Positions 310 to 63,470 of a DNA stretch of 64,000 nt are shown here, one piece after another; the stretch's first letter is position 1; each line of letters opens with the position of its first letter. Origin of the DNA: Eledone cirrhosa (taxonomy: Eukaryota); assembly GCA_964016885.1 (NCBI GenBank), contig OZ024740.1, forward strand, positions 156,922,001 through 156,986,000. The letters run 5' to 3'. Under the pieces are notes generated by a model. The model was not told the DNA's origin and ran no database searches. It saw nothing but the letters and a program-made list of their open reading frames with translations. The position numbers and the translations under genes are program-made.

Positions 310-3300
310 ATGGCGACCGTTGTGGTCAGTGTCCGATAATTGGACGTGTGTAATTACGGCTTACATGAAGGCAACATACCATATATTGGAAAAAGTTGAG
401 CTACATTACGCGGTAAGATTACATACAATAATTCTACATAAGTGTTTGAACTGTAAGTGTGTTGTAAAACACCTATTTATATGAACGATACATACACTTA
501 TGATATATGAACGATACATACACTTTAACATATAAATGCAACGTTGTTATATTACATTTATAAAGAAATATAAAAGTAACGTTTTCGATTCAGAAACAAA
601 AATATAAGTGTTTGAACTGTGAATGTTGTGAATATGTTGTAGAACACCTATTTATATGAATGATACATAAACTTTAACATATAAATACAGCATTGTTATA
701 TTATATTACATTCGTAAAGGAATATACTAAGTAACGGTTCTTTTTGTTCTCGATTCAAACGATTCAAGAACAACGTTTAAAACACAGTTGTAGAATTAAA
801 AACTAACTGAAAAGAAATATTACCCAAGCTGTGAATAACTTTAAATTTGATTCTGACAGAACTTTGTCGTAACTTTTAAAGAAGATCATCGACTATTTAA
901 AAAAAATAAATACAAAATATTAGTGAATAGACGAACTCATCATGGCAAAAAGTACAAGTCTCCTTCGACCAAATCGCAATTACAACCGTTGTATACAGTG
1001 GAGCTACGAGCTTAACAAAGAATTATATGAAGCATACAAACAATCTGAACCCCAAAAGTTCGGTTTTATGCAAAGGCTAAAAACTTTATGGAACTCCAAA
1101 CACCCAGAATTAGACTTTTCTCCAAAGCATCTAAATGAACAGGCAAAACGTATCATTAGATGTAAATTGATACATCTAACGGAATCGAGTGATACTACAA
1201 ATACAGCCCTTGTAGACAACCACCCCACCTCCACTGACAGACAAAGAGAATGGCCGGCTAAATCTAACAGTGAACAGCTCACCAACAATTTTGCTGAAAT
1301 CCATCCCACTTCCACTGAAGAACAGCGAGAAAGGTCAGCTGACTCTAGTAGTAATTGTCACCACATCAACAACGAGGCTGCAATTCATGACTCTACTGAA
1401 CAAACAGAGCACCAAAAACTTGTGGGCACCCTACAAGTGATATGGAACGATATGTTTCAAGAGATACACAGCCTTAATGTGAGTGACAGACCATACAACA
1501 CTAGAGTCAGTAAAGAACCCACTAAATTGGAATTGGAAGCGGTGAACGAAATAGCTGGCAATTATCTGAAGGCTATACGATCTAAAGGTGTAGAAACGAC
1601 ATTTGAAACGCTCAATGTTTTGTTATATGTTTCAGCTGTCACATTGCTATCATATAACACACATCTAAAACCACGCAATCAAGATACAAACAGAAAGCCT
1701 GAACCAGCGTGGATGCGAAATTTAAAAACCAAAATTTTGTCCCTGAGACGAAGTATCTCACACATCGCAGTCGTTATGAAATGCAACATAGAGAGAAACT
1801 TCACACGACACCAGGAAGACCTAAAGAAAAAGTTAGAGAGACGATTTGGAGATACCAAATTTAAAACTTTGAACTCCAAATTACACCAGTTGAAACAACA
1901 ACTCACAGCTACAACAGAAAGACTAAAATATAAGTCAACAGCCCATAAACGACAAGTGCTAAATAGATTGTTTGCCAGAGATCCTAAATCAGTTTATCGC
2001 AGCTTCGGTGGCAAAAGCTCAATCCCTGTAAACGACACCCCTTCAAAAGAACAGGTTGAGAACTACTGGAGATCTGTATGGGAAACGGATGACGGATTCA
2101 ACAGACAAGCTAATTGGCTAAAACAACTGGAACAGGACTACTGCCAACATGTCCAGACAAAACAATATGACATAGATGGGTCAATACTGGAAACAGCTCT
2201 ACAGAAAATGTCGAATAGGAAATCGCCAGGCCCAGACCTCATTACAGGATACTGGTTGAAGAATTTCACTTTCTATCGGCAAGATCTCATACGGCTGTTT
2301 ACAGAAACCATTAAGGGCACACAAGAACTGCCCAGATGGTTATCAACTGCCACTACTCTCCTCATTCCCAAAAATAGCCAAACCACCCTTGCTAAAAATT
2401 ACCGCCCAATTGCCTGCCAAAACATCATGTATAAATTATATACTGGGTGCCTTAACCTGTTCTTACAGGATCACTGTCCTACCAACAACATCATAACACC
2501 TGAGCAAGCTGGTGGAAAGAGGGAGGTGTGGGGTTGCATAGATCACCTACTAACTAACAAAATGATTCAGGAAAAAACAACAAAGAATCGCAGAAACATG
2601 ACTGTCGTGTGGCTGGACTATCAAAAAGCATTTGATAGTGTACCTCATGGGTGGATTATTAAGGCTTTACAGTTAGCTAAAGTCCCACAACCATTGGTAG
2701 CTGCTGTTGAGCGCCTGACCAAGAACTGGTACACCAATTTGATCCTTAGAGGTGAGAAGGAGCAAGTTAAGACTGATAAGATACATTACCAGAAGGGCAT
2801 CTTTCAGGGTGATAGCTTGTCAGTGCTACTCTTCGTTCTCTCACTGAATCCACTATCTTACCTACTCAGGAAACAAGGTGGACAAAGAAGTGGGCCCAGA
2901 AGTATCTCCCATCTTTTCTTTGTTGATGACCTGAAGTTGTATGGGCCAAATATCAATGACATCAAGAAACAATTGGACCTCATTACACAATTTTCAACCG
3001 ACATCAAAATGAAATTTGGTGAGTCCAAGTGTGCATATTTGGCAGTAAAACGTGGAAGAGCTGTGCCCTCCTCTAGAAATCTAGATAGGAACGGCCTGAC
3101 AATACAACCTCTGCAGTCAGGTGTCAACTACAGATATCTTGGACAGGATGAGAATGTCAGATATGATGGACCCATAAATAAGGAGAGAACCAGAACTGAA
3201 TACCTCAGAAGAGTAAAAAAAATATGGTCATCAGAACTGTCAGCATACAACAAATACATTGCCCACAATACCTATGCTGTGCCAATTATAACGCCAACAT

Positions 3301-4531
3301 TTGGCCTACTGAACTGGTCATTGCAAGAACTAAGTGAGATGGATGTTAGAACTCGTAAACTTCTCAGTGTTACTGGGAACTTTAACATCAATGGTGATGT
3401 GGATAGGCTATACTTCTCACGCAAGGAAGGTGGCCGGGATCTAAAATCAATATTAACAACATATGAGACCCGGATAGTAACACTGAAGCAACACCTTCAA
3501 CAGAGGAAAAAGGTTGGCGACCATCTTGCTCAGGTTTATGAGCATGAAAAAAGAAATATCATTAGAATAGCGACTGATCTGGAGGAGAGATATGGAATAA
3601 AGCCTGATATAAATCTCTCACCCAGAGAAATCGGAAGATCCTATTCAATGTTCAAACAAGAAAAAAAAATTGACCAATTTACAGAGAAAGTTGTGCATGG
3701 ATACTTGAGGCGTAAAACACAGACCATAGAGGGGATAAACCACTCAAAAAGCCTGGCATGGAGTTCCGACAAGTTTATGACATCACACCTTGAGGGATAT
3801 CTCTATGCAATACAGGAACAAGAACTCCCTACCAAATATCTGCTGCACAAAAGAGGAGGGCCAGCAGCTGACAATAAATGTAGGCTATGTAAAACAAAGA
3901 TCGAGGATGTAAGCCACATTGTTGCCAGCTGCGAAAGAATGTCATCTCGCTACTACCTCCTCATGAGACACGATGGGATAGCTAGAACTATCTGGAACGC
4001 ACTTCGGAAAACAAAATTAACAACAAACGAGGAAGAATATATTGAGACAGATGGCACTAAGGAATACTGGTGGAACCTGAAAATAAAAACTGCCACCAAA
4101 TTAAAGCACAACCGGCCTGATATTGTAGTTTGGGACCACACATTGAAAACGTGTTCTGTTGTGGAGATCAGCTGCCCACTTGATGTAAACGTTGTCAGAA
4201 AAATACAGGAGAAGGAGGACATCTATGGACCATTGATGAGGAGCTTACAAATCCAGTATCCAAGATACACCTTTAGCTTCATACCCATCATTATTGGTGC
4301 TACGGGTTATATACCAATCCGCTTGGACCAAAGTATGACCGAACTTGGATTTGCGGACAAAAAGCGCAGCTCCCTAATTCATAGTCTACAAATGGCTGCG
4401 ATAGCTGGCACCTTCAAAATATGCAAAACATTCTTGCGATTCAAGGGATGACAATTTCTTTTCTTTTACAACCTTGCCACCAGGAAGGTGGCCGGTCAAA
4501 AAAATATACTCGAAATTAAGAGAAAGAGAAA
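310..4531 (+). mobile_element. Full-length R4/Dong-clade non-LTR retrotransposon (family A) inserted in (TACA)n
   Basis: About 630-bp 5' UTR with an internal repeat (ataagtgtttgaactg...aacacctatttatatgaa at ~439 and ~604), single RT-RLE ORF, ~80-bp 3' UTR, TACA arrays on both sides. Confidence 0.9.
942..4451 (+). CDS. Reverse transcriptase plus restriction-like endonuclease polyprotein (1169 aa, uninterrupted)
   Basis: Motifs KSPGPD, NYRPIAC, LDYQKAFDSVPH, GIFQGDSLS, LFFVDD, YRYLG; CCHC knuckle CRLC-x8-H-x4-C; RHD; PD-(D/E)xK nuclease RPDIVV...VEISCP...KEDIY. No APE domain. Confidence 0.93.
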   Translation: MAKSTSLLRPNRNYNRCIQWSYELNKELYEAYKQSEPQKFGFMQRLKTLWNSKHPELDFSPKHLNEQAKRIIRCKLIHLTESSDTTNTALVDNHPTSTDRQREWPAKSNSEQLTNNFAEIHPTSTEEQRERSADSSSNCHHINNEAAIHDSTEQTEHQKLVGTLQVIWNDMFQEIHSLNVSDRPYNTRVSKEPTKLELEAVNEIAGNYLKAIRSKGVETTFETLNVLLYVSAVTLLSYNTHLKPRNQDTNRKPEPAWMRNLKTKILSLRRSISHIAVVMKCNIERNFTRHQEDLKKKLERRFGDTKFKTLNSKLHQLKQQLTATTERLKYKSTAHKRQVLNRLFARDPKSVYRSFGGKSSIPVNDTPSKEQVENYWRSVWETDDGFNRQANWLKQLEQDYCQHVQTKQYDIDGSILETALQKMSNRKSPGPDLITGYWLKNFTFYRQDLIRLFTETIKGTQELPRWLSTATTLLIPKNSQTTLAKNYRPIACQNIMYKLYTGCLNLFLQDHCPTNNIITPEQAGGKREVWGCIDHLLTNKMIQEKTTKNRRNMTVVWLDYQKAFDSVPHGWIIKALQLAKVPQPLVAAVERLTKNWYTNLILRGEKEQVKTDKIHYQKGIFQGDSLSVLLFVLSLNPLSYLLRKQGGQRSGPRSISHLFFVDDLKLYGPNINDIKKQLDLITQFSTDIKMKFGESKCAYLAVKRGRAVPSSRNLDRNGLTIQPLQSGVNYRYLGQDENVRYDGPINKERTRTEYLRRVKKIWSSELSAYNKYIAHNTYAVPIITPTFGLLNWSLQELSEMDVRTRKLLSVTGNFNINGDVDRLYFSRKEGGRDLKSILTTYETRIVTLKQHLQQRKKVGDHLAQVYEHEKRNIIRIATDLEERYGIKPDINLSPREIGRSYSMFKQEKKIDQFTEKVVHGYLRRKTQTIEGINHSKSLAWSSDKFMTSHLEGYLYAIQEQELPTKYLLHKRGGPAADNKCRLCKTKIEDVSHIVASCERMSSRYYLLMRHDGIARTIWNALRKTKLTTNEEEYIETDGTKEYWWNLKIKTATKLKHNRPDIVVWDHTLKTCSVVEISCPLDVNVVRKIQEKEDIYGPLMRSLQIQYPRYTFSFIPIIIGATGYIPIRLDQSMTELGFADKKRSSLIHSLQMAAIAGTFKICKTFLRFKG

Positions 4532-5367: not shown

Positions 5368-7268
5368 CACACGCACATACATAAACATATCTATACACAT
5401 ACACGATAGCAATTAACAGCGCTGCGATTGAATATGGCTCTTTATCCCAGCCAATGATCTAAAATGTCTTGCACAGAGTCGGCAGCCAAAACATTCACTG
5501 GGAATAGCCGGCTGTGGTTGGAGTTCGTGTACTTTTGCATGTCGTTTGAGCCCTCCTGCTGATTTACATTCTCTACCACATGCTTGGCAAACGTGATGAG
5601 TAGCATCTCCAACAGCAGCCTGGTAGTCAACCACTGGTCTTACTTTATGACTGCGAAGATGACTTTCGCGTCCAGCTTTGCTTAGGCAGAGTCTCGCACA
5701 GACGCTGCATGTCAGCACCATAGGTAGGACCTTCGCTGTCTGGAAGTGCAAGAGCAATGCCCTTCCTCATATCCCGCTTTACTTTCTCGTATGCGATTCG
5801 AGATGCCTCAAAGGCAACTTTTCCCTCAAATACAGTCTTTCTCCATTTATTACGATCAGCAACAATATTCTCCCATGTATCAGCAGAGATGTTAGCGTCT
5901 TTCAGAGAGGCTTTCAAGGAATCCTTATACCTCTTTTTTGGTTTATGTGGCGGTCGTTTTCCTTTAACTAACTCTCCATAAAAGAGTTGTTTTGGTATTC
6001 TAGAATCCTTCATCCTAGCAAGGTGACCACTCCAACGGAGTCGTTGCTTAAGCACAAGAGCTTCTATACTGTCACACATAGAGCTTTCCAAAATCTCGAC
6101 ATCACTGATGTGGTGCCTCCAGTGAACACCATGGATCCGTCTGAGACACATCTGATGGAAACGTTCCAATTGCTTAAGGTGGTGTCGATATGTGACCCAG
6201 GTCTCGCAGGCATAAAGAAGAGAAGAGAGCACACATGCCTTGTACACCTTTACCTTTGTCTTCTTGCATATGCCTCGCCGACCCCAGAGTCGCCTTTCTA
6301 GCTTTCCTAAAGCATCACTTGCTTTCCTAATCCTGAGTGGGATTTCACTATCAAGGTTGCTGTATCGATTGACAGTGCTTCCCAGGTAGACAAACTGATC
6401 AACCACTCCAAGTCGTTGGTTCACTGTACTGCTTACCAGGGAGAGGTTGGTACATGACGACGGTCTTCTTGAGACTGACAGTCAATCCTAGGGCAGTGCA
6501 AGCATCAGAAAATGCATTCAAAATGTGCTGCATATCACTCTCTGTGTGCGCTACAAGATCGCAATCATCTGCATACAAGAAGTCTCTTATGATTGATGTA
6601 AATACTTTTGTTTTTGCAGCAAAGCGCCTGATGTTAAATATGCTGCCTCGGGTTCGATATCGGATATAAACACCATGCTCGCAATTCCTGAATGCAATAC
6701 AGAAAACCATTGCAAAGTATATGGCAAACAGGGTCGGTGCTGGAATATCCCTCTGTTTCACTCCGTTTCTTACTGAGATAGGCTCCAACATGTTACCTCC
6801 GACATTAACCCAAGCCTTTATGTCGTCATGGATAGACCTAACTAAAGCAAGGAAATTATCAGGGCAACCAAGTTTATGGAGAACCTTCCATAATGCATTA
6901 CTGTTAACAGTATCGAAAACTTTTGTTAGATCGACAAAAACCTGATACAGATCCAAACCTTGTTCCATGCATTTCTCCTGGAACTGTCTAGCTGAGATCA
7001 TATCAGTAGGGCCGCGTCCAGCACGAAAACCAGAGATTGACTTTCAGGAAGAACACAATTTGCAATATGTGTCAGCAGACGGTCCAGAAGCACCCTACAT
7101 AAAACTTTTCCTACGATAGAAAGCAATGATATACCTCTGTAGATTCCCACAATCATTCCTGTTACCCTTTCCCTTGTACAAGACCACCATTACTGCATCT
7201 ATCCAGTCCTCAGGTACGGATTCATTAGCCCATATCCTGCCAAACAAAGAGTGATGTCGAGATTTTGG
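5232..7268 (-). pseudogene. 5'-truncated, frameshifted RTE-clade LINE with C-terminal C2H2 zinc fingers and (ATGT)n tail
   Basis: Fragments YRGISLLS, FVDLTKVFDTV, GVKQRD, FLYADD, FVYLGS, LLYACETW, LRWSGHLARM, RIPKQLFYGEL and three C2H2 fingers (ORFs 6399-7001, 5645-6424, 5413-5757). Confidence 0.9.
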
Positions 7269-7269
7269 A

Positions 7270-10200
7270 AAAACGTATCATTAGATGTAAATTGATACAT
7301 CTAACGGAATCGAGTGATACTACAAATACAGCCCTTGTAGACAACCACCCCACCTCCACTGACAGACAAAGAGAATGGCCAGCTAAATCTAACAGTGAAC
7401 AGCTCACCAACAATTTTGCTGAAATTCATCCCACTTCCACTGAAGAACAGCGAGAAAGGTCAGCTGACTCTAGTAGTAATTGTCACCACATCAACAACGA
7501 GGCTGAAATTCATGACTCTACTGAACAAACAGAGCACCAAAAACTTGTGGGCTCCCTACAAGTGATATGGAATGATATGTTTCAAGAGATACACAGCCTT
7601 AATGTGAGTGACAGACCATACAACACTAGAGTCAGTAAAGAACCCACTAAATTGGAATTGGAAGCGGTGAACGAAATAGCTGGCAATTATCTGAAGGCTA
7701 TACGATCTAAAGGTGTAGAAACGACATTTGAAACTCTTAATGTTTTGTTATATGTTTCAGCTGTTACATTGCTATCATATAACACACATCTAAAACCACG
7801 CAATCAAGATACAAACAGAAAGCCTGAACCAGCGTGGATGCGAAATTTAAAAACCAAAATTTTGTCCCTGAGACGAAGTATCTCACACATCGCAGTCGTT
7901 ATGAAATGTAACATAGAGAGCAACTTCACACAACACCAGGAAGACCTAAAGAAAAAGTTAGAGAGAAGATTTGGAGATACAAAATTTAAAACTTTGAACT
8001 CCAAATTACACCAGTTGAAACAACAACTCACAGCTACAACAGAAAGACTAAAATATAAGTCAACAGCACATAAACGACAAGTGCTAAATAGATTGTTTGC
8101 CAGAGATCCTAAATCAGTTTATCGCAGCTTCGGTGGCAAAAGCTCAATCTCTGTAAATGACACCCCTTCAAAAGAACAGGTTGAGAGCTACTGGAGATCT
8201 GTATGGGAAACGGATGACGGATTCAACAGACAAGCTAATTGGCTAAAAGAACTGGAACAGGACTACTGCCAACATGTCCAGACAAAACAATATGACATAG
8301 ATGGGTCAATACTGGAAACAGCTCTACAGAAAATGTCGAATAGGAAATCGCCAGGCCCAGACCTCATTACAGGATACTGGTTGAAGAATTTCACTTTCTA
8401 TCGGCAAGATCTCATACGGCTGTTTACAGAAACCATTAAGGGCACACAAGAACTGCCCAGATGGTTATCAACTGCCTCTACTCTCCTCATTCCCCAAAAT
8501 AGCCAAACCACCCTTGCTAAAAATTACCGCCCAATTGCCTGCCAAAACATCATGTATAAATTATATACTGGGTGCCTTAACCTGTTCTTACAGGATCACT
8601 GTGCTACCAACAACATCATAACACCTGAGCAGGCTGGTGGAAAGAGGGAGGTGTGGGGTTGCATAGATCACCTACTAACTAACAAAATGATTCAGGAAAA
8701 AACAACAAAGAATCGCAGAAACATGACTGTCGTGTGGCTGGACTATCAAAAAGCATTTGATAGTGTACCTCATGGGTGGATTGTTAAGGCTTTACAGTTA
8801 GCTAAAGTCCCACAACCATTGGTAGCTGCCGTTGAACGCCTGACCAAGAACTGGTACACCAGTTTGATCCTTAGAGGTGAGAAGGAGCAGGTTAAGACTG
8901 ATAAGATACATTACCAGAAGGGCATCTTTCAGCGTGATAGCTTGTCAGTGCTACTCCTCGTTCTCTCACTGAATCCACTAGCTTACCAACTCAGGAAACA
9001 AGGTGGACAAAGAAGTGGGACCAGAAGTATCTCCCATCTTTTCTTTGTTGATGACCTGAAGTTGTATGGGCCAAATATCAATGACATCAAGAAACAATTG
9101 GACCTCATTACTAAGTGAGATGGATGTTAGAACTCGAAAACTTCTCAGTGTTACTGGGAACTTTAACATCAATGGTGATGTGGATAGGCTATACTTCTCA
9201 CGCAAGGAAGGTGGCCGGGGTCTAAAATCAATATTAACAACATATGAGACCCGGATAGTGACACTGAAGCAACACCTTCAACAGAGGAAAAAGGTTGGCA
9301 ACCATCTTGCCCAGGTTTATGACCATGAAAAAAGAAATATCATTAGAATAGCGACTGATCTGGAGGAGAGATATGGAATAAAGCCTGATATAAATCTCTC
9401 ACCCAGAGAAATCGGAAGATCCTATTCAATGTTCAAACAAGAGAAAAAAATTGACCAATTTACAGAAAAAGTTGTGCATGGATACTTGAGGCGTAAAACA
9501 CAGACCATAGAGGGGATAAACCACTCAAAAAGCCTGGCATGGAGTTCCGACAAGTTTATGACATCACACCTTGAGGGATATCTCTATGCAATACAGGAAC
9601 AAGAACTCCCTACCAAATATCTGCTTCACAAAAGAGGAGGGCCAGCAGCTGACAATAAATGTAGGCTATGTAAAACAAAGATCGAGGATGTAAGCCACAT
9701 TGTTGCCGGCTGCGAAAGAATGTCATCTCGCTACTACCTCCTCATGAGACACGATGGGATAGCTAGAACCATCTGGAACGCACTTCGGAAAACAAAATTA
9801 ACAACAAACGAGGAAGAATATATTGAGACAGATGGCACTAAGGAATACTGGTGGAACCTGAAAATAAAAACTGCCACCAAATTAAAGCACAACCGGCCTG
9901 ATGTTGTAGTTTGGGATCACACATTGAAAACGTGTTCTGTTGTGGAGATCAGCTGCCCACTTGATGTAAACGTTGTCAGAAAAATACAGGAGAAGGAGGA
10001 CATCTACGGACCATTGATGAGGAGTTTACAAATCCAGTATCCAAGATACACCTTTATCTTCATACCCATCATTATTGGTGCTACGGGTTATATACCAACC
10101 CGCTTGGACCAAAGTATGACTGAACTTGGATTTGCGGACAAAAAGCGCAGCTCCCTAATTCATAGTCTACAAATGGCTGCGATAGCTGGCACCTTCAACA

Positions 10201-10284
10201 TTTGCAAAACATTCTTGCGATTCAAGGGATGACAATTTCTTTTCTTTTACAAAAAAATATACTCGAAATTAAGAGAAAGAGAAA
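7270..10284 (+). mobile_element. R4/Dong family A copy 2: 5'-truncated, ~345-bp internal deletion at ~9110, 3' UTR deletion
   Basis: Near-identical to 1145-4531. The junction ctcattac|taagtgag skips about 2989-3330 of copy 1. QGD is changed to QRD. Ends in a TACA array. Confidence 0.93.
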
Positions 10285-10295
10285 ACATACACACA

Positions 10296-10326
<31 letters not shown>

Positions 10327-10358
10327 CATACATACATACATACATACAGACATACATA

Positions 10359-10755
10359 ATTTATGCCTGTGATTATTGGGGAACTGGGGTATGTTAGTAA
10401 CTGTCTCAATACAAATCTTGAGAAGCGAGGGTTCAGAGGAACAGAAAGAACACGACTAGTTAGGAAATTACAAGTACAATCCATTAATGGAACAGTAAAA
10501 ATATGTAAAGCATTCCAAAAATGTTGCATCTAATAACTGCATATACACATGTACAGATGCAAAGCATATACACATGCACACATACAACTCAAAACATACA
10601 CATCCACACATACAATAACATCCATATTTACACATGCATGCATACATAATCTACCTAGTTGATGTGTAAATTCCAATGAGAGAGTCTTGTGTCTATGTTA
10701 GAAACCGGCTCTCTCTCTACTGGTAAAATTTTGTGAAATTATAAAACCAGAAGAA
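10359..10755 (+). mobile_element. R4/Dong family B, short 3' fragment in (TACA)n
   Basis: Matches 45098-45498; encodes FMPVIIGELGYV...VKICKAFQKCCI; TACA arrays on both sides. Confidence 0.88.
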
Positions 10756-10798
10756 CATACATACATAACACACACACATACATACATACATACATACA

Positions 10799-10829
<31 letters not shown>

Positions 10830-10849
10830 TCATACATACATACATACAT

Positions 10850-10880
<31 letters not shown>

Positions 10881-10897
10881 TACATACATACATAACA

Positions 10898-12545
10898 CAG
10901 GGTGATAGCTTGTCAGTGCTACTCTTCGTTCTCTCACTAAATCCACTATCTTACCAACTCAGGAAACAAGGTGGACAAAGAAGTGGGTCCAGAAGTATCT
11001 CCCATCTTTTCTTTGTTGATGACCTGAAGTTGTATGGGCCAAATATCAATGACATCAAGAAACAATTGGACCTCATTACACAATTTTCAACAGACATAAA
11101 AATGAAATTTGGTGAGTCCAAGTGTGCATATTTGGCAGTAAAACGTGGAAGAGCTGTACCCTCCTCTAGAAATCTAGAGATGAATGGCCTGACAATACAA
11201 CCTCTACAGTCAGGTGACAACTACAGATATCTTGTACAGGATGAGGACACATAAATAAGGAGAGAACCAGAACTGAATACCTTAGAAGAGTAAAGAAAAT
11301 ATGGTTATCAGAACTGTCAGCATACAACAAATACATTGCCCACAATACTTATGCTGTGCCAATTCTAACGCCAACATTTGGCCTGCTGAACTGGTCATTG
11401 CAAGAGCTAAGTGAGATGGATGTTAGAACTCGCAAACTTTTCAGTGTTACTGGGAACTTTAACATCAATGGTGATGTGGATAGGCTATACTTCTCACGCA
11501 AGGAAGGTGGCATCATATGAGACCCGGATAGTAACACTGAAGCAACATCTTCAACAGAGGAAAAAGGTTGGCAACCATCTTGCCCAGGTTTATGAGCATG
11601 AAAAAAAATATCATTAGGATAGCCATTGATCTGGAGGAGAGATATGGAATAAAGCCTGATATAAATCTCTCACCCAGAGAAATCGGAAGATCCCATTCAA
11701 TGTTCAAACAAGATGAAAAAATTGACCAATTTACAGAAAAAGTTGTGCATGGATACTTGAGATACCACTCAAAAAGCCTGGCATGGAGTTCCGACAAGTT
11801 TATGACATCGCACCTTGAGGGATATCTCTATGAAATACAGGAACAAGAACTCCCTACCAAATATCTGCTGCACAAAAGGGGAGGGCCATGAGCTGACAAT
11901 AAATGTAGGCTATGTAAAACAAAGATCGAGGATGTAAGCCACATTGTTGCCAGCTGCGAAAGAATGTCATCTCGCTACTACCTCCTCATGAAATACGATG
12001 GGATAGCTAGAACCATCTGGAACGCACTTCGGAAAACAAAATTAACAACAAACGAGGAAGAATATATTGAGACAGATGGCACTAAGGAATACTGGTGGAA
12101 CCTGAAAATAAAAACTGCCACCAAATTAAAGCAAAACCGGCCTGATATTGTTGTTTGGGAACACACATTGAAAACGTGTTCTGTTGAGGAGATCAGCTGC
12201 CTACTTGTCAGAAAATACAGGAGAAGGAGGACATCTACGGACCATTGAAGAGGAGTTTACAAATCCAGTATCCAAGATACACCTTTAGCTTCATACCCAT
12301 CATTATTGGAGCTACAGGTTATATACCAACCCGCTTGGACCAAAGTATGACTGAACTTGGATTTGCGGACAAAGAGCGCATCTCCCTAATTCATAGTCTA
12401 CAAATGGCTGCGATAGCTGGCACCTTCAACATTTGCAAAATATTCTTGCGATTCAAGGGATGACAATTTCTTTTCTTTTACTACCTTGCCACCAGGAAGG
12501 TGGCCGGTCAAAAAGAATATACTCGAAATTAAGAGAAAGAGATAA
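10898..12545 (+). mobile_element. R4/Dong family A copy 3: 5'-truncated, several small deletions and stops
   Basis: Starts at QGDSLS, collinear with 2806-4531 apart from short deletions; flanked by TACA/GACA repeats. Confidence 0.92.
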
Positions 12546-12562
12546 CATAACACACATACATA

Positions 12563-13160: not shown

Positions 13161-13284
13161 TGTGGGAAAACAAAGATAGGTTAATAGAAAGATATTGTTA
13201 ATAGTTTATACAGATGATGACTAGAAGTGAATATAATATACAGGAAGATTGTTGAAGTCTAAAATATTTCTCTATATAGAAATA

Positions 13285-13380
13285 TAATTGTTTCTACTTT
13301 AGGCACAAGGCCAGCAATAACCCAGTGCATTACTGGTACTTTATTTTATCGACCCCGTAAGGATGAAAGGCAAAGTCAAC
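13285..13380 (-). mobile_element. 5'-truncated tRNA-derived SINE (family of 28554)
   Basis: Reverse complement of gttgactttgcctttcatccttacggggtcgataaaataaagtaccag...ggccttgtgcctaaagtagaaacaattat. Confidence 0.85.
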
Positions 13381-13470: not shown

Positions 13471-15800
13471 TTGTGTGTATACGTTATAGTGTATATGTTA
13501 TTGTGTATATGTTATTGTGTATATGCTATTGTGTATATGTTATTCTGTATACGTTATTGTGTATACGTTATTGTGTATATGTTATTGTGTATATGTTATT
13601 GTGTATATGTTATTGTGTATATGTTATTGTGTATACGTTATTGTGTATACGTTATTGTGTATATGTTATTGTGTATATGTTATTGTGTATACGTTATTGT
13701 GTATACGTTATTGTGTATATGTTATTGTGTATATGTTATTGTGTATACGTTATTGTGTATATGTTATTGTGTATATGTTATTGTGTATACGTTATTGTGT
13801 ATATGTTATTGTGTATATGTTATTGTGTATACGTTATTGTGTATATGTTATTGTGTATATGTTATTGTGTATACGTTATTGTGTATATGTAATTGTGTAT
13901 ATGTTATTGTGTATACGTTATTGTGTATATGTTATTGTGTATACGTTATTGTGTATATGTTATTGTGTATACGTTATTGTGTATACGTTATTGTGTATAT
14001 GTTATTGTGTATATGTTATTGTGTATACGTTATTGTGTATATATTATTGTGTATATGTTATTGTGTATATGTTATTGTGTATACGCTATTATGTATATGT
14101 TATTGTGTATATGTTATTGTGCATACGTTATTGTGTATATGTTATTGTGTATACGTTATTGTGTATATGTTATTGTGTATACGTCATTGTGTATATGTTA
14201 TTGTGTATATGTTATTGTGTATATGTTATTGTGTATATGTTATTGTGTATACGTTATTGTGCATATGTTATTGTGTATATGTTATTGTGTATATGTTATT
14301 GTGTATATGTTATTGTGTATATGTTATTGTGTATATGTTATTGTGTATACGCTATTATGTATATGTTATTGTGTATATGTTATTGTGCATACGTTATTGT
14401 GTATATGTTATTGTGTATACGTTATTGTGTATATGTTATTGTGTATACGTTATTGTGTATATGTTATTGTGTATATGTTATTGTGTATATGTTATTGTGT
14501 ATATGTTATTGTGTATATGTTATTGTCTATACGTTATTGTGTATATGTTATTGTGTATATGTTATTGTGTATACGTTATTGTGTATATGTTATTGTGTAT
14601 ACGTTATTGTGTATATGTTATTGTGTATATTTTATTGTGTATACGCTATTATGTATATGTTATTGTGTATATGTTATTGTGCATACGTTATTGTGTATAT
14701 GTTATTGTGTATACGTTATTGTGTATATGTTATTGTGTATATGTTATTGTGTATATTTTATTGTGTATACGTTATTGTGTATACGTTATTGCGTATACCT
14801 TATTGTGTATACGTTATTGTGTATATGTTATTGTGCATACGTTATTGTGTATATGTTATTGTGTATATGTTATTGTGCATACGTTATTGTGTATATGTTA
14901 TTGTGTATACGTTATTGTGTATATGTTATTGTGTATACGTTATTGTGTATATGTTATTGTGTATATGTTATTGTGTATATGTTATTGTGTATATGTTATT
15001 GTGTATACGTTATTGTGCATGTTATTGTGTATATGTTATTGTGTACATGTTATTGTGTATATGTTATTGTGTATATCTTATTGTGTATATGTTATTGTGT
15101 ATACGTTATTGTGTATACGTTATTGTGTATATGTTATTGTGTATATGTTATTGTGTATACGTTATTGTGTATATGTTATTGTGTATATGTTATTGTGTAT
15201 ATGTTATTGCGTATATGTTATTGTGTATACGTTATTGCGTATACGTTATCGTGTATACGTTATTGTGTATATGTTATTGTGTATATGTTATTGTGTATAC
15301 GTTATTGTGTATATGTTATTGTGTATACGTTATTGTGTATATGTTATTGTGTATACGTTATTGTGTATATGTTATTGTGTATACGTTATTGTGTATATGT
15401 TATTGTGTATATGTTATTGCGTATACGTTATTGTGTATATGTTATTGTGTATACGTTATTGTGTATATGTTATTCTGTATATGTTATTGCGTATATGTTA
15501 TTGTGTATATGTTATTGTGTATATGTTATTGTGTATATGTTATTGTGTATACGCTATTATGTATATGTTATTGTGTATATGTTATTGTGTGTATGTTATT
15601 GTGTATACGTTATTGTGTATATGTTATTGTGTATATGTTATTGTGTATATGTTATTGTGTATATGTTATTGTGTATACGTTATTGTGTATATGTTATTGT
15701 GTATACGTTATTGTGTATATGTTATTGTGTAAATGTTATTGTGTATATGTTATTGTGTATATGTTATTGTGTATATGTTATTGTGTATACGCTATTGTGT
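13471..15800. repeat. 14-bp minisatellite (GTTATTGTGTATAY), about 165 copies
   Basis: Head-to-tail units with two dominant variants ending TATAT or TATAC; the long ORFs here are repeat artefacts. Confidence 0.97.
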
Positions 15801-16696
15801 GTTTGTTATTTGATATTTATAATAGTGACATAATATCTTAATATGTTCTATTAATATTGTTATAATGATAGTGAGTAGTATTATATAATGATATTGGATG
15901 CAGTGTGATTTTATCAATGAGAATATCTTCTGTTTATGTCCATTTATGCTTTGAGTTCAGCCCTTGATTACAGGAAAGAGTAGAAGTCTACGTATGTATA
16001 TCCCCCTAACCCCTGATCGTGTCATAGGGGGCGCCACATTTTACATATGGCGTATCTAGGTTATTTTAAGCCTGGTGGAGCCCATCTGTTCTGTAGGTCT
16101 AAAAATAGCTGATTTCTTCCAGAGAAGGATAAAGAGAGTGAGAGAATGGAAGTGAGAAAGAGATATAGAGGAAGTATCGACTAGACTGATACTTTTTTTT
16201 ATCATCCGCGAATATAGGAAAAGCAAAGTTGACCATCGCAGAATTTGTACACAGAAAACAGAGCCGAAACGAATACCACAAAACATTCTATCCGACTTTC
16301 TAACGACTCTTCAATTCGCTGCTTTCAGAAATCTACATACTGGGATCGGATATAATAAACTATGTTCTTCAATCCCTGGTATGGCCACAATTGATCGATT
16401 GAAACCACTTTATGATAATGGGATTCCTAATAAACGACCAATGCCATGCATTTGGGAAGAGTTTATTTTCGATTATATCGATGTAGCAACTTGACTGATA
16501 TTTTATTTGAAATCAGACAATAAAACGATGTAACTAATTATAACGACTCATTTAATCTGTCAGTGTACTGGTTCTAGCGTTCACTGCCCTTTGAAGCAAA
16601 TAATTTGATATCAAGATAAAAGAAGACATTGGAAGTTACACTAATAGTTTGAAAGTTAGGAATGAACTGCTAAGTTGTTAATATGAATGTTTTAAA

Positions 16697-16870
16697 TAAT
16701 TGTTTCTACTCTTTGGCACACAGCCAGCAATTATCCCAGTGCATTACTGGTACTTTATTTTATCGACCCCATAAGGATGAAAGGCAAAGTTAACTTCGGC
16801 GGGATTTAAACTCATACTATAAAGGGCCGTAACTCTATACTGCAAACATGGCGTCTGACCCTCTTCCGAT
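16697..16870 (-). mobile_element. tRNA-derived SINE (family of 28554), diverged 5' part
   Basis: Same central domain and 3' end as 28554-28767 on the reverse strand. Confidence 0.8.
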
Positions 16871-16947: not shown

Positions 16948-17662
<715 letters not shown>

Positions 17663-20336: not shown

Positions 20337-20795
20337 TTAAGATTTAGTCAGTAGTATACATTAAATCTCAATGAATAATATTGCTTAGAATATAATTCAG
20401 AGAACCTTATAAATAAAAATATAAAACCATCTTGATTAAAGTTCAGAATCAACATAGAGGCAAAACATTATTATAACGAAGATTTCATATCCACTAACTG
20501 TAGTTTCACAAATTAGATATCAGAATCAATCCTCCCAATTAATTAAGATGGCTAATTACCGCAAGAAATTATTTTATCATCAGAGAAGTAAAGCGCTAGG
20601 GAGGTTCTTTATTTTAGATTGCTTTACAGTGATCTTCCCTTTAGTCAATATATATATACATATAAGTATGTTTGTTTTGAAACAGTGAGCAAGTTTGAAA
20701 TTAGAAATAGAAGCTTTCACCGTATTTTTGACTAAAGAAATTTTAGCCTGATAATGGGGTTTAGAACCCTCAGAAAAATGGAAAAAAATGAGTAT

Positions 20796-20866
20796 TGACG
20801 TATATGGGAGTCGAACCCACATCTATGGTTATCCAGACCACTGTGCTACTATTACACCAACACATC
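20796..20866 (-). tRNA. tRNA-like cloverleaf with non-canonical anticodon loop (CUGGAUA)
   Basis: Acceptor gatgtgt/atacgtc, D arm gtgt-aatagta-gcac, anticodon stem gtggt/accat, T arm gtggg-TTCGACT-cccat, T-run about 8 nt downstream. Confidence 0.6.
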
Positions 20867-21157
20867 ACCCATCTCCTTCCATTCAAATTAGAAGCTACAT
20901 TCTTAGCAAATATAATGACAAGTAAGTATGTATGTTTGTTTTGAAACAGTGAGCTAGTTTGAAATTAGAAACAGAAGCTTTCACCGTATTTTTGACTAAA
21001 GAAATGTTAGCATGATAATGGGGTTTAGAACCCTCAGAAAAATGGAAAGCTTCTATTTCTAATTTCAAACTTGCTCACTGCTTCAAAACAAACATACTTA
21101 CTTGTCATTATACTTGCTAAGAATGTGAGCTTCTAATTTGAATAGAAGGAGAAGGGT

Positions 21158-21228
21158 GATGTGTTGGTGTGATGGTAGCACAGTGGTCTGGATAAGCAAA
21201 GATGTGGGTTCGACTCCCATATACGTCA
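21158..21228 (+). tRNA. Second tRNA-like cloverleaf, anticodon stem partly decayed
   Basis: A box TGGTGTGATGG, B box GGTTCGACTCC, downstream T-run. Confidence 0.55.
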
Positions 21229-21729
21229 ATACTCATCTTTTTCCATTTTTCTGAGGGTTCTAAACCCCATTATCAGGCTAAAATTTCTTTAGTCAAAAAT
21301 ACGATGAAAGCTTCTATTTCATATATATATATATATATATATAAAGTGTGAGATAGGGAAACAGACAGTGGGAGAGAAGTGATGGCACCTTAAGCCATCT
21401 CATTTCCTTATTAATTCTTATTTCTTTTAAATCAAAAGATGTTTTGAAAATCAGATATTGAGAAAAAATAAACATTTTTTCTTTTTTTCCTTTTCAATAA
21501 GAAACTAATAAATGTAGAGATGCTTTCAATTTATTTATTTGTTTATTTATTCATCTGTTTGCGTTTGCGAATAAAAACGTATATTAATGTATTTCTTTTA
21601 TAATGGAAGTGTTTAAGTATATAGTTTTTAGTTGCATTTGTAATTACATTTTCATCCTTGATGAATTAATACATCATTTGAAATGATCATATAATGATGC
21701 TGTACAATATTGATGCTTTCATTATTGAA

Positions 21730-23440: not shown

Positions 23441-23528
23441 AAAAATAAAAAAAAAACAAAGAAAGTGTGGTAAGAAACCAGGTGTCGAAAAGGCCAGAGC
23501 TCAACCGTCGGGGTCGTGACTCTTTTCC

Positions 23529-23530
<2 letters not shown>
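23440..23530. mobile_element. Inverted-junction copy of the 17279/48872 family
   Basis: Antisense tail (aaagtgtggtaagaaacca) joined to sense gtcgaaaaggccagagctcaaccgtcggggtcgtgactcttttccta, then (TA)n. Confidence 0.75.
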
Positions 23531-23611
<81 letters not shown>

Positions 23612-28553: not shown

Positions 28554-28767
28554 GGGCAGTCGATTGGCACAATCGGTAGAGCGTCGGACAACATGCTTTG
28601 CAGCATAGAGTTACGGCCCTTTATGATCTGAGTTCAAATCCCGCCGAGGTTAACTTTGCCTTTCATCCTTACGGGGTCGATAGAATAAAGTATCAGTCAC
28701 ACACTGAGGTCGATTTAATCGACTTCCCCCTCCCCCAAAATTGCCGGCCTTGTGCCTATATAAGAAA
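28554..28767 (+). mobile_element. Full-length tRNA-derived SINE with 18-bp target-site duplication
   Basis: A box tggcacaatcgg, B box gagttcaaatcc, central gcctttcatccttacggggtcgat domain; ccattattaaaaataaag at 28533-28550 and 28768-28785. Confidence 0.88.
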
Positions 28768-29340: not shown

Positions 29341-29830
29341 TGAGAAATTATGACCCCGACGGCAGAGCTCAAGCTGTTTCGACGGCTGTTTCTGGACTAA
29401 AGTAAGAGTTTTTTTTAGTCTGGTAAATAAATAGCCGAAATTTTCAAGGGGTACTTCCTTATATGGGAAGAATGTAGTTGTCAAGAGGATTGGACAAAAT
29501 TTGTAGTAGACACAGAAAAGTCTATGATAGCAGTGGGTGCGGGGTGGGGTGGCTGAACTTGCCTGTAGAACGATAGGGGAGTGGGTAGAGCCGGTCAAGC
29601 GTTGAAGGTGAAATCTACACGGCAAATTCTAAGGAATGTGTATGAAAGTAGGCCAGAGGAGGTAGGCAAAAAAAGGTTTCATGAGAGAATGGAGGAGGGA
29701 CGTTATAGAATTGGTAAATCAAATGAGATTAGGAGACAATGAAAAATTATAATAAAAAAGAATATAATAAAAAATGAGAGAAAGATATATCAGAATGTAA
29801 GATTGGAATGTGAGAAGTGAAATAAAGCAA
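29341..29830 (-). mobile_element. PLE-like 3' end containing the complete hammerhead (29353-29452) of the 17279/48872 family
   Basis: Minus strand acccc TTGAAAA ttt cggctattt...aaacagccg tc GAAA cagcttgagctctgccg TC ggggt; the 3' end abuts (TA)n. Confidence 0.7.
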
Positions 29831-30775: not shown

Positions 30776-30778
<3 letters not shown>

Positions 30779-31193
30779 TATTTACGTATCGAGAAAGAGA
30801 AAAAAAGGGGAGGAGAGGTGATACATATAGTTATTTGCCAAGTAGCGTATGCCAAAGGTGCTCGATACTAGTGCCGGCAGTATTAAATATTCGAAGTGTT
30901 AATATTTAGTGGGCTAGAGAGTTAGCAGAGCGTAAGCACGTGGGAAAGTTAAAAATCGGAGAATAGACCGTTAAAACATGTTTATTTAAAACAGCACCTA
31001 CGTACGTTTAGCCCAGTTGGGCTTCTCAAGGGCATAAATAATCAAAAGTGTTCCTTATATTGCTCGAGCAATATAAGGAACACTTTTGATTATTTATGCC
31101 CTTGAGAAGCCCAACTGGGCGAAACGTACGTAGGTGCTGTTTTAAATAAACATGTTTTAACGGTCTATTCTCCGATTTTTTACTTTCCCACGT
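30776..31193. mobile_element. Near-perfect ~256-bp palindrome (30938-31193, centre gctcgagc at 31063-31070) plus ~160-bp left tail between (TA)n arrays
   Basis: Arms differ at about two positions; each arm carries a hammerhead and AATAAA. Confidence 0.9.
31098..31137 (+). ncRNA. Minimal type I hammerhead, U3-A8 covariant core
   Basis: gccc TTGAGAA gccc-aact-gggc GAAA cgtacg TA ggtgc; the mirror copy in the left arm has GAAA mutated to TAAA. Confidence 0.75.
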
Positions 31194-33346: not shown

Positions 33347-33447
<101 letters not shown>

Positions 33448-33448
33448 T

Positions 33449-33894
33449 ATAAGATCAAAAGATGGTTAAAAGAGTTCCATATTTTATCATGCGCATTTCA
33501 AAAACAAATATCATCATGCAATAACATTTGCGTTTTCGTCAGATAAAATAGGGAGACATGATATGAAGATTAAAACACACTTGTGAATAGTGCAGTTTTA
33601 AATCAACATATCATATATATATATATCAACATAGCATATATATGTTGATTTAAAACTGCACTATTCACAAGTGTGTTTTAACCTGTCATGTCTCCCTATT
33701 TTATCTGACGAAAACGCAAATGTTATTGCATGATGATATTTGTTTTTGAAATGCGCATAATAAACTACATAGAACTCTTTTAACCATCTTTTGATCTTAT
33801 ATATTATTATTTATACTCCAGTTCTACAAACTGTAGAGTGCTACTTATCCGATATCTGCATTGCTTTATTGTACTACAATAAAACTCACCTCCT

Positions 33895-33897
<3 letters not shown>
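33449..33897. mobile_element. Fold-back cassette with ~160-bp arms (33449-33610 and 33642-33800) and ~95-bp right tail in (TA)n
   Basis: Arms reverse-complementary with a few differences; same family as 60423-60590. Confidence 0.88.
33700..33764 (+). ncRNA. Type I hammerhead ribozyme motif
   Basis: tttat CTGACGA aaacgcaaatgttatt...gatgatatttgttttt GAAA tgcgca TA ataaa. Confidence 0.78.
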
Positions 33898-35979: not shown

Positions 35980-38900
35980 AATGCCACACAGAAATCACGT
36001 GGAGTGACGAAACCACTGGAGGTGATGAAATCACCGGTGGTTATGTAACCATACATTCGCCAATCCTCGATAAGGGTGTTTAAATGTCGAACCTAAACAG
36101 TTCGAATAACGGTGAAATGGAGACTAGAATGTCATGTGACAGACTCTCACCCAACAGGTGCTCCCTGGATCAGCAGCAGGGACCTGGCTGTCAACCAAAT
36201 ACTGCTGGTGTCGGAGGAAGAAGAAGAAGGAAAGGGACCAGAACCAACTGGACGAAAGAATTGAATAGAACTGTTATGCAATGTTACCTGAAGAGTAACC
36301 CCAAGGAGAAAGGCTATAGGAAACAGATGCATAAAATCTGGAACGAGATCGGTCTATTTAAATTAGATGAACAAAAATTGGCCGGGCAGGCTCGGGTAAT
36401 AAGAACTAATGGGTGGATAAGCGAGCTGGAACTGGAGGAACTGAGCAGAGAGATTAGCTTGGAGATAGAGAGTGGAGTATGCCAGGCAAACGAGCCAGTG
36501 GGAAATGAAGGTGAAGAGGTCGAGAGAACGGAGGAACCACCCGAAGCAGACAATGATCTGAATGCTGAGATAAATAATACCTGGAACAGAGATACGGCCA
36601 CTGAGGAGATGAATGCTGACGGGCTAGGACAAGATTTGGTTGATATCCTAAACTTAGTGGTAGATGAATTGAACAATGATAGTGGGAGACATATGAAACT
36701 AAGATTTGTAGACAGGAAAAAGTTAAAAGAAACAACAGCTAAGGTAAACAAAGTCATCCCATACCTTGAGGCGAGGAGCCTTCACCAGTGCAACAATATC
36801 CTCAAAGCAACAGCAAATACGGTGAGGAAACTACTTGGTATAAAAGCGAGAGGAAACAACAGACAAGAAAGAGCAGAGCCTTGGTGGAAGAAACGACTGA
36901 GTGGTCAAATCAGGGAAATGAGAAATGACATTGGAAAGCTTGAGTCCCTACTGAATGGGACACTAAAAGACATAGACACTAAAAATAGACTGGAAATAAA
37001 GTACAAAACTAGGAGGAAAAAGTTAAATATTATCATAGAGGAACTGAAGCAACGCATTGTAGCAAAGAGTGCAAAAATCAGGCGATACGAGAACAGAGTC
37101 AGTCAGTATAGACAGAACCGCATGTTCGACAACAACCAGAAGATGTTGTTTGGACAGCTTGAAGGGAAAGAAAGAGGCAACGACTTGATCCCTGAGGCGG
37201 AACAAACTAAAACATTCTGGAGAGGAATATGGGAGCAGGATGTTAAACATAATGACCAGGCAGAGTGGATTAAGACAGTACAAAAGGAGATTAGTGAACA
37301 GGCACGCCAACAAACTGATTTGAGTATCACAGTTGAAACTCTTAGGGGGCAGGCCAAAAAACTAACCAACTGGAAATCACCAGGCCCAGATGGTGTGCAG
37401 GGTATTGGATTAAAAATATAACATCCCTCCAGCCGAAACTGACAACCATGTTCAATGACTGCTTGATGTCAGGTGAGGTACCAGAGTGGTTGACAAGAGG
37501 TACCACAGTTCTGATAATGAAAGACCGAATCAAGGGTAATGATGTTACCAAATATAGACCTATCACATGTCTGTCCGTAATGTGGAAACTGTTGACAAGC
37601 ATTATATCTGAGGAAATCTACCATCACCTCCACACAAACAACTTGTTACCGGACGAACAGAACGGATGCCGAAAGAAATCACGTGGTACAAAGGACCAGT
37701 TACTTATTGATAAGATGGTAATGAGGAATTGCAAGAGGAGACACACTGGTCTTGCCATGGGATGGATAGACTACAAAAAGGCATTTGACATGGTGCCTCA
37801 TTCTTGGATCACCAAAAGCCTGGAGATCTTCAAGGTGGCAGATAACATCAGACAGTTGTTGGGCAAAAGTATGAAGTCCTGGGAAACAGAGTTAACATCA
37901 ACTGGAGAATCCTTGGGAAGCGGGAAAATCAAGAGAGGTATCTTCCAGGGAGATAGTCTGTCCCCTCTGTTGTTTGTCCTTGCCCTGATGCCCCTGACCA
38001 GTGTACAGCGAAAAGTGAGAGCAGGATACAGTTTGGGAAGAGAGGGCTTACCATCAATCACCTCCTCTTCATGGACGATCTTAAGCTCTTCGGGAAGAGT
38101 GAGAAGGAGTTGGATGTGCTTGTTGACACTGTCCGTATTTTCAGCAATGATATATGTATGCAATTTGGTATTAGTAAGTGTGGAGTCATTGTGATGAGGA
38201 GGGGTAAGTTGAGCAGAAGTAACGGAATCCAGATACCAACAGGTGAGATGATAAAAGAAATTGACTCTGAGGAAGGATACAAGTATTTGGGCGTTCTGGA
38301 GGCTGATGACATCAAGAACAAAAAAATGAAGGAATTGATAAGAACTGAATACCTTCGGAGAGTAAGGAGCGTATTAAAGTCACATCTGAACAGTAGGAAT
38401 GCCATAAGTGCAGTAAATTCCCGAGCTGTGTCTATTATTAGGTACAGTGCGGGAATTCTGAGATGGAATGTTGCTGAACAAAAAGAAATGGATAGGAAGA
38501 CTAGGAAGCTATTGACTATCTACAACATGTTCCACAAGAGGAGTGATGTCGATAGACTCTACTCAAGGAGATCTGAGGGTGGAAGAGGTCTTATCAGCAT
38601 AGAGGACTGTGTTCAGATGGAGAAAAACACCTACACAAATATGTGACTGATAGTAAGGAGCCAATGCTCATAACTGTACTGAAGGAGGGGACAATAGGCC
38701 AGGGGATGTCCAAGGAGGAAATAACATCAAGGAGAAAGAGCAGCCTTCAGGAAAAATCCCTTCATAGTACCTTCTTTGAGAAAACTGAATTTAGAGATCC
38801 ACAGACATGGAACTGGTTGAAAAGAGGAGACCTTAAAAAGGCTACAGAAGGAATGTTAATGGCTGCGCAGGAGCAGGCCCTCAAAACGAAGTGGTTGAAA

Positions 38901-39579
38901 CACCACATTTACAAGGAGGAGGCTAGCCCACTGTGCAGGATCTGTGGAGAGAGAAAGGAGGCTGTGGCTCACATTGTATCCGAGTGTAAACACCTAGCCC
39001 AGACTCACTATAAGGGCTGGAGACATGATGTGATGGGCAGGGTGATCCACTGGCACCTATGCAAAGTAAACAACTTACCACATTCTGAGAAGTGGTATGA
39101 GCATAAGCCAGAGGCGGTGATAGAAAACGATCAGGTGAAGGTGCTGTGGGATTTTAGGATACAGACGGACAAGAAACTGGAACACAATAGACCTGGCCTG
39201 GTGGTTTTGGACAAGGAAAAAAGATCGTGCCTGATTGTGGATGTGGCCTGCCCATTCGACACGAGAGTGCAGGAGAAGGAGAGGGAGAAAATTAACCGAT
39301 ACCAGGACTTAAAGTGGGAGGTAAAAAGGATTTGGAACTGCCATGAAGTCAAAGTGGTCCCGATTGTCATAGGTGCACTAGGGACTATCTCAAAAAGTTT
39401 CCAGCGATGGTTAAAGAAAATTGGCCCCTTCACGCTTTTTGGAACGCTTCAAAAGGCATGCTTGCTGGGAACAGCAAGAACCCTCCGATACGTCCTGAAT
39501 ATCTGAGGCTGCAGGTAGTGGCTTGATATTCATTTCAACAAACTTTCCAGTTAACTAACATCAATGACTGAGACTCAAA

Positions 39580-39580
<1 letters not shown>
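35980..39580 (+). mobile_element. Near full-length Dong-like R4-clade element (family C) with three frameshifts, 3' end in (TAA)n
   Basis: ORFs 36084-37421, 37448-38194, 38071-38646, 38643-39506: WKSPGPD, YRPITCL, IDYKKAFD, QGDSLSP, FMDDLKL, CRIC..H..C, RHD, RPGLVV...DVACP. Confidence 0.9.
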
Positions 39581-39640
<60 letters not shown>

Positions 39641-39668
39641 TACAAGAACGAAGAAATGCCTACCAAAC

Positions 39669-48871: not shown

Positions 48872-48876
<5 letters not shown>

Positions 48877-49060: not shown

Positions 49061-49127
<67 letters not shown>

Positions 49128-60612: not shown

Positions 60613-63470
<2,858 letters not shown>

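Follow-up and report, generated by a model that had tools for sequence, protein, structure and literature searches.

Here, we describe a 658-nt insert between TA runs in a 64-kb stretch of genomic DNA (the window) that probably represents an abundant, non-coding tandem element, i.e., a non-autonomous retroelement that would be copied by the enzymes of Penelope-like elements (PLEs) from an RNA of more than one unit, and whose tRNA-like module would serve as a promoter and not as a cleavage signal. That the family is mobilised by PLE machinery, whatever the role of the tRNA, is very likely. The insert consists of two head-to-head arms with a unit of 261-264 nt (Table 1), and no open reading frame of at least 120 codons overlaps it.

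Architecture of the insert and its tRNA-like module

The left arm comprises one unit and a 122-nt repeat of it (spacing 264 nt, 96% identical), which amounts to 1.46 units; read outward, a 5'-truncated piece of 122-126 nt precedes the full unit. The right arm is inverted, has a period of 261 nt and 1.06 units, and starts at a different phase from the left arm: it opens with the final 56 nt of one unit and continues into another, which ends 41 nt sooner than the left arm does. The tetranucleotide at the junction belongs to both arms. Over 224 nt the arms differ by nine substitutions and one indel (about 4.5%), and despite these differences they share changes that are rare in the family (20775, 20803 and 20669/20672), which fits a single event that copied one template twice. 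A first-pass annotation of this DNA had proposed a unit of about 262 bp, inserted in (TA)n as about 1.5 tandem and then about 1.05 inverted copies at another phase, and both the measured unit numbers and the TA runs at the two ends of the insert bear this out. Its term "circularly permuted" applies to the arms in that they begin at different phases, but neither to the tRNA, which is no permuted gene with the 3' half before the 5' half (tRNA model positions 1-71 are in order), nor to the family, in which the 3' ends are fixed and not random in phase.

Table 1. Features of the insert and its flanks (window coordinates)
Feature	Position	Strand	Basis
Left (TA)n target remnant	20648..20662	.	Sequence
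Left arm, 386 nt: 5'-truncated upstream unit, then full unit with tail	20663..21048	-	Repeat and arm comparison
41-nt AC-rich tail at outer end of left arm only; long 3' end 20663/20664, short 3' end 20704	20663..20703	-	Arm comparison; (TA)n loose ends in RAD reads
Hairpin H2, 7 bp	20730..20748	-	Predicted fold
Hairpin H1, similar to a T-arm (second, decayed); may be 3' half of outer tRNA relic	20755..20771	-	Predicted fold; matching right-arm half without Rfam tRNA match
Trailer strand of leader-trailer helix, holds T-run (T7 here, T5 in family majority)	20775..20793	-	Predicted fold; family variant at 20787
tRNA-like module, GGA triplet, A and B boxes intact	20796..20866	-	Rfam RF00005, 56.7 bits; ARAGORN
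Leader strand of helix, -1 to -19	20867..20885	-	Predicted duplex, -20.9 kcal/mol; 1 of 5000 shuffles equal
Possible 5' half (acceptor strand, D-arm, anticodon arm) of outer tRNA relic; overlaps helix strand	20877..20917	-	ARAGORN below default threshold after excision; matching right-arm half without Rfam tRNA match
5'-truncated upstream unit (pseudo-LTR equivalent)	20923..21048	-	Repeat analysis
Head-to-head arm junction, 4-nt overlap GAAA	21045..21048	.	Sequence
Right arm, 276 nt: end of upstream unit (56 nt including tail, to 21100), then unit ending at short 3' end	21045..21320	+	Repeat and arm comparison
Right-arm tRNA-like module, anticodon stem partly broken; T5 at 21238-21242	21158..21228	+	Rfam, 40.9 bits; sequence
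Right (TA)n target remnant	21321..21343	.	Sequence

Each arm holds one outward-facing tRNA fold (E 1.5e-9 in the left and 3.2e-5 in the right arm; the Rfam tRNA gathering score is 29). The two folds are also the sole tRNA calls of ARAGORN within the 64 kb, both with the anticodon GGA, and T37, a 4-nt variable loop, the A and B boxes and the T-run can be read directly in the sequence, so that Rfam, ARAGORN and the sequence itself agree on the outward-facing cloverleaves that the first-pass annotation had reported. Two pairs of the anticodon stem are broken in the right arm. A functional tRNA-Ser is expected to have a long variable arm and a purine at position 37. Judged by its sequence, a short-armed GGA module with T37 is not a plausible tRNA-Ser, in line with the same annotation, which had set the pyrimidine at 37 and the short variable arm against that identity.

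Variants in public reads indicate that the family majority keeps both boxes and the acceptor pairing, has the top pair of the anticodon stem broken and carries a T5 run 9 nt downstream of the tRNA. All three acceptor-stem changes listed among 40 of the 125 variants keep the pair, and G18 is restored in about 99% of the read depth at 20850. Candidates for a parent tRNA were rejected: 12 viral loci with a similar D-arm (four Trp, three Lys, one Gly, four without a call) match at 39-47 of 71 positions, and phages gave partial matches only (E 0.02). In the viral contigs L003, L006 and L008 (151-225) a D-arm resembling that of a tRNA is present although ARAGORN makes no tRNA call; L003 and L006 have in addition a T-arm-like motif, but their anticodon arm is not normal.

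The 18-19 nt upstream of the tRNA are predicted to pair with nucleotides 74-92 downstream, leaving a 3-nt bulge. This leader-trailer helix is stable only on the tRNA strand (-8.4 kcal/mol on the opposite strand) because its imperfect pairs are all G:U on the tRNA strand; the fold z-score of the region is -3.2 on the tRNA strand versus +0.6 on the opposite one, and the helix is weaker in the right arm (-12.5). It spans the T5 terminator and continues for 6-7 pairs beyond it, and the full helix would therefore exist only in read-through RNA. Seven family changes in the helix are listed among 40 of the 125 variants; four improve a pair, one breaks a pair and two bring no gain. Alternatively, the pairing may be what is left of an old inverted repeat.

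Once the inner tRNA was removed in silico, ARAGORN fitted a long-armed cloverleaf with a TTG triplet to the remaining sequence at 94% and 96% of its threshold in the two arms, which are not independent of each other. In controls that kept the helix, none of 250 sequences per arm reached the score of this possible relic when both outer parts were shuffled; 5 and 2 of 150 did so when only the upstream part was shuffled, and 1 and 0 of 150 when only the downstream part was, figures that go with a hypothesis formed after viewing the sequence and with a poor acceptor stem. Hairpin H1 resembles the inner T-arm, and neither half of the possible relic has an Rfam tRNA match (right-arm halves). The relic would begin about 5 nt inside the natural 5' end of the unit, and most copies fall short of it. 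That the intact tRNA is nested in an older tRNA relic is quite possible, although we would stop short of calling it probable.

A dispersed family with one fixed and a probable second 3' end

Six public runs were listed as containing the stretch, none of them an RNA run, which says nothing about expression. Four of the six were compared over positions 20340-20955, namely two contig sets from a single sample and two RAD libraries from different samples labelled as the same species. Of the family features, 40 of 125 variants, 15 of 49 joints and 24 of the 931 loose ends are used below. The two contig runs contained 4310 and 4082 matching contigs, versus one for the flank, mostly 90-99% alike. Summed X1 depth is 5.7 in the unique flank and peaks at 337,633 at 20739-59, from where it declines toward the 5' end through 229,154, 99,627, 45,701 and 26,320 to 4,068. 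A steady fall of this kind, from the 3' part over the tRNA to the start of the unit, is what 5' truncation would give. Summed depth is not a copy number; the safe reading is that the family has thousands of copies, and tens of thousands are possible. The left junction of the insert is covered without difference by one contig in each of two runs of one sample, and this exact match means that the left junction is real.

The long 3' end is marked by reads that pass from the element into (TA)n at 20664 (147 and 129 RAD reads, consensus agreement 0.68). A short 3' end near 20704, about 40 nt inside the long one, is present in the right arm. It is also implied by a doubling of contig depth from 20697-717 to 20718-38 and by the change 20701 T>A, which 140 of 188 and 138 of 188 RAD reads carry. 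Restriction at the AATT site where it is intact inflates this share, and the same change accounts for only 2.6% of X1 contig depth. The family thus probably has a second 3' end about 40 nt inside the first, less well shown than the long end. Apparent RAD ends at 20702, 20739 and 20889 lie at AATT sites and were discarded as restriction artefacts, together with the low-agreement loose ends at these sites. A drop in contig depth near 20905 was likewise rejected as a 5' end: the loose letters are a variant of the same junction, and the drop may stem from clipping of diverged subfamilies.

Tandem joints go back 229-256 nt across one junction, and the intervening letters are variants of that junction. 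The monomer of the family measures about 256 nt and units range from 256 to 264 nt overall. Joints to the opposite strand occur at at least five different places in the family.

Copies run through both ends of the tRNA. RAD depth is retained across its 5' end at 78-80% (position 20867) and still at 69% at 20875; contig depth is retained at 47% and 32%, respectively, with no plateau inside the tRNA. These values agree with the earlier view that the tRNA is internal and not a SINE-like 5' head, while the steeper fall of contig depth may mean that some copies start there. Neither CCA nor a scar was found at either tRNA end in the insert copy, and the listed indels of the family include no such insertion.

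Probable PLE-type insertion and competing explanations

Insertions of PLEs are described as partial tandems with 5' truncation that favour microsatellites, frequently bear a truncated copy in inverted orientation at the 5' end and have a tail of 30-40 bp on one side (PMC8557442). For one PLE studied in vitro, PMC11167929 reports that both target strands are cut and extended, that reverse transcription starts at two internal sites with the tail being the sequence between them, and that hammerhead cleavage is unneeded, with uncut RNA as the main template. The insert carries the corresponding marks, namely a partial tandem, an inverted 5'-truncated copy, a one-sided 41-nt tail and a (TA)n target. 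They make a non-autonomous, PLE-mobilised element, as first proposed from the sequence, the most likely reading.

Other elements in the window show similar ends. One arm runs straight into (TA)n in five of the eight other fold-backs tabulated and comes within 11 nt of it in a sixth, and two do not fit; 1.2% of all window positions lie within 6 nt of a TA run. Where measured, the opposite arm of the (TA)n-abutting fold-backs is longer by 30-162 nt. The PLE copy at 60662-63446 has the same layout as the insert, with a GIY-YIG frame fragment (62832-61948, minus strand, E 2e-7), a microsatellite-rich 3' region, an inverted truncated copy (62821-63446) and, confined to the left arm, a tail of some 40 nt. 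Longer relatives of the GIY-YIG frame mostly have an RT domain, the nearest named one is from oyster (50%), and the CX4CxxC linker fits the description of Neptune/Nematis in PMC8557442. These findings point to an animal host with (TA)n-targeting PLEs, probably a mollusc, whose genome may resemble those of octopuses. On the sense strand of this copy, no canonical hammerhead core was found. Best local matches between the 3' end of the insert family and seven element ends in the window gave uncorrected p values of 0.03-0.97, with 0.20 for the GIY-YIG element. Separately, four short remnants of another PLE-type end lie in (TA)n at 17278-17380, 23485-23573, 29343-29398 and 48872-49061, two of them as fold-backs.

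As for ribozymes, no Rfam ribozyme family matched positions 20400-21600 at E up to 10, and none was among the 150 listed of the 171 matches in a scan of the 64-kb window to E 5; Rfam is insensitive to minimal hammerhead cores and missed those found by hand elsewhere in the window. A relaxed core scan of the tRNA strand revealed no hammerhead core with a closable stem II. The other strand has an arrangement reminiscent of a type III hammerhead (core-like motif 20748-20754, GAA 20773-20775), which was considered and ruled out: position 8 is A, 20754 varies and the GAA is lost at 20775 in about 99% of X1 depth. By Rfam and motif check the insert thus has no convincing hammerhead, as the first-pass annotation had stated, its sole core-like motif being broken in the family. 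Hammerhead-like motifs do occur in other repeats of the window. A fold-back in (TA)n at 30776-31193 has a minimal U3-A8 core at 31102, a core variant described for schistosome PLEs. A PLE-type end whose hammerhead has a long stem II and a palindromic stem III occurs twice, at 33438-33897 as a fold-back with an 85-nt one-sided extension and again at 60393-60620. Further hammerhead-like cores are located near 23360 (minus strand), by the short PLE-type remnants, and at 63811 (minus strand) within a retrozyme-like, partially tandem non-coding unit of about 480 nt (63480-64000).

We propose that tandem copies are transcribed, likely by Pol III from the A and B boxes of the upstream unit with read-through of T5, or alternatively by Pol II read-through transcription. 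In the transcript the leader would pair with the trailer and lengthen the acceptor stem by 18-19 bp, which is predicted to hinder RNase P and RNase Z and to leave the template whole; leader pairing that extends the acceptor stem, with short pairing, is reported to inhibit bacterial RNase P (PMC9433436). By analogy with the published PLE mechanism, a (TA)n-targeting PLE would then nick both strands and prime at two internal sites about 40 nt apart. Both cDNAs would end early and join head to head at the 4-nt overlap, giving the structure seen in the insert, a fold-back with the tail on one arm. The weakest part of this model is the inferred role of the tRNA module as promoter and of the helix as protection of the template. 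Since Pol III is expected to terminate at the T5 run that most family members have behind the tRNA, the model needs read-through twice. Fixed 3' ends and variable 5' ends on a tandem template can account for the apparent permutation, which needs no RNA circle. The proposed copying "from a multimeric or circular RNA" hence stands for a template of more than one unit but not for the circle, as a linear tandem, two priming sites and 5' truncation suffice.

Processing via the tRNA fold, also suggested at first, fares worse: copies cross both tRNA ends, CCA is absent and the predicted helix extends the acceptor stem. In its developed form, RNase P or RNase Z would cut the multimer in place of a hammerhead, and the monomers would be ligated into circles that the PLE reverse transcriptase copies round. 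The conservation of cloverleaf, boxes and acceptor pairing across the family (including the three listed acceptor changes), the failure to detect a ribozyme and the halving of contig depth near +1 are compatible with such a cycle, and a circle would also allow copies across the tRNA ends; retrozymes of similar size are reported to make circles (PMC7229834). It is nonetheless unlikely, given the tRNA ends without CCA or scar, a helix predicted to bury both cleavage sites, the predominance of uncut RNA as template of the PLE studied in vitro (PMC11167929) and the fact that PLEs are normally tandem without circles. It is tempting to go further and to propose an undescribed, widespread class of animal Penelope parasites with a tRNA module in place of the retrozyme hammerhead, in which the nested tRNA and the helix would set RNase P/Z cutting into monomers or circles and host tRNA processing would control the life cycle; we regard this as speculative and rather improbable.

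Other explanations dispense with a dedicated non-autonomous element. An autonomous PLE family with a tRNA in its untranslated region could have the unit as its 3' end or pseudo-LTR, most copies being truncated before the frame. The end structure equals that of the coding PLE at 60662-63446, which also has no canonical hammerhead core, and strong 5' truncation hides the upstream sequence in most copies. However, the tail of the previous unit lies 5' of the unit in both arms and at every upstream contig joint and loose end listed (24 of 931 loose ends), and no 120-codon frame overlaps the insert, which makes this origin very unlikely. Just as unlikely is an ordinary or composite tRNA-derived SINE, mobilised by LINEs, with the outer relic as its head and by chance tandem and inverted at this locus. 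Against it stand the lack of an A-rich or repeat tail, of a target duplication and of a sharp 5' end at either tRNA start, the terminator 9 nt past the inner tRNA and the inverted joints at many phases, even though the Pol III boxes are intact, the copy number is high, LINE-type RT frames are common in the window and the possible outer relic would have the place expected of a SINE head, some 5 nt from the natural 5' end. Least probable, and in our view hardly credible, is that the insert is part of a normal tandem array of tRNA genes or a fold-back artefact of the assembly. The left tRNA copy does pass tRNA finders at default settings, but GGA sits on a short-armed body with T37, and thousands of truncated copies, 5-15% diverged, are dispersed; moreover, the arms are asymmetric and 4.5% apart, the left junction is found in reads and inverted joints recur in other copies. 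Our preferred reading therefore remains a non-autonomous element copied by PLE enzymes from a tandem RNA, with the tRNA module as its putative promoter.

Relation to known elements

The titles and abstracts that we searched contained no description of a ribozyme-free, tRNA-bearing, PLE-mobilised element, within a scope that left aside repeat libraries (Repbase, Dfam), subscription journals and older SINE papers, and the family may be deposited in repeat libraries under another label. Three motifs of the element are absent from the small supplement of an octopus repeat paper, which contains no library, and scans for the element pattern in viral contigs, metagenome contigs and prokaryote genomes found nothing. 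New here is a tRNA on a predicted leader-trailer helix of 18-19 bp, which includes T5 and has its stability on the tRNA strand alone. Non-autonomous PLEs as such are already known; in the best reading, the family adds to them a variant that has no ribozyme and carries an internal tRNA-type promoter. If true, the family would be a PLE-dependent counterpart, with a tRNA-type promoter, to the LINE-dependent SINEs and the LTR-dependent TRIMp3. Such families would be mistaken for unclassified SINEs or tRNA pseudogenes and raise tRNA counts. As a 260-nt template whose two 3' ends can be mapped, the element would be a compact substrate for studying PLE RT recognition in trans, and it would help to ask if PLEs and retrozymes require their hammerhead.

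With PLEs and their non-autonomous derivatives the insert shares the partial tandem, the inverted 5'-truncated copy, the tail at one end, the (TA)n target and 5' truncation, as described in PMC8557442 and PMC11167929; head-to-tail copies of a non-autonomous PLE are known from MRC1 of Chlamydomonas (PMC8557442). It differs in that it has no reading frame, bears a whole tRNA fold inside the unit and shows no convincing match to PLE ends in the window. Animal non-LTR retrozymes are likewise non-coding tandem units (170-400 nt, compared with 256-264 nt here) with a proposed dependence on PLEs (PMC7229834; bioRxiv 10.64898/2026.07.22.740005), but are defined by a type I hammerhead per unit, which was not found in the insert family. 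Schistosome Sm-alpha and Sj-alpha resemble it in having a tRNA-derived Pol III module in a tandem unit, where the upstream unit transcribes the next (PMC2770079, PMC6765202). Sm-alpha is described there with an active hammerhead, whereas the insert family is without one and instead has the predicted leader-trailer helix and PLE-type ends. In Cassandra and Helenus TRIMs (TRIMp3), a small-RNA gene in the terminal repeat acts as the Pol III promoter of a non-autonomous retroelement (PMC10886601), the role that the tRNA module probably has here. The true LTRs, PBS/PPT, 4-5-bp target duplications and dependence on LTR elements described for TRIMp3 have no equivalent in the insert, which has inverted arms and TA flanks.

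Short length, absence of coding capacity, A and B boxes and high copy number are features that the insert family has in common with tRNA-derived SINEs as defined in SINEBase (PMC3531059). Compared with that definition, the intact tRNA of the insert is internal and followed by a terminator, and the ends are PLE-like and not LINE-like. The insert sequence contains no LINE-type tail or target duplication, and the listed loose ends of the family are (TA)n target. Octopus SINEs were reportedly described by Ohshima and Okada in 1994. The window also contains another tRNA-type SINE family of ordinary appearance, represented by five pieces (13276-13380, 16696-16870, 28572-28710, 52866-52986 and 56559-56676). 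RT-encoding non-LTR elements occupy 927-4451, 7229-12562 and 36084-41289, including one open frame of 1174 codons with broken copies nearby that are 98% identical, and a 2.3-kb satellite with a 14-nt unit extends from 13474 to 15810.
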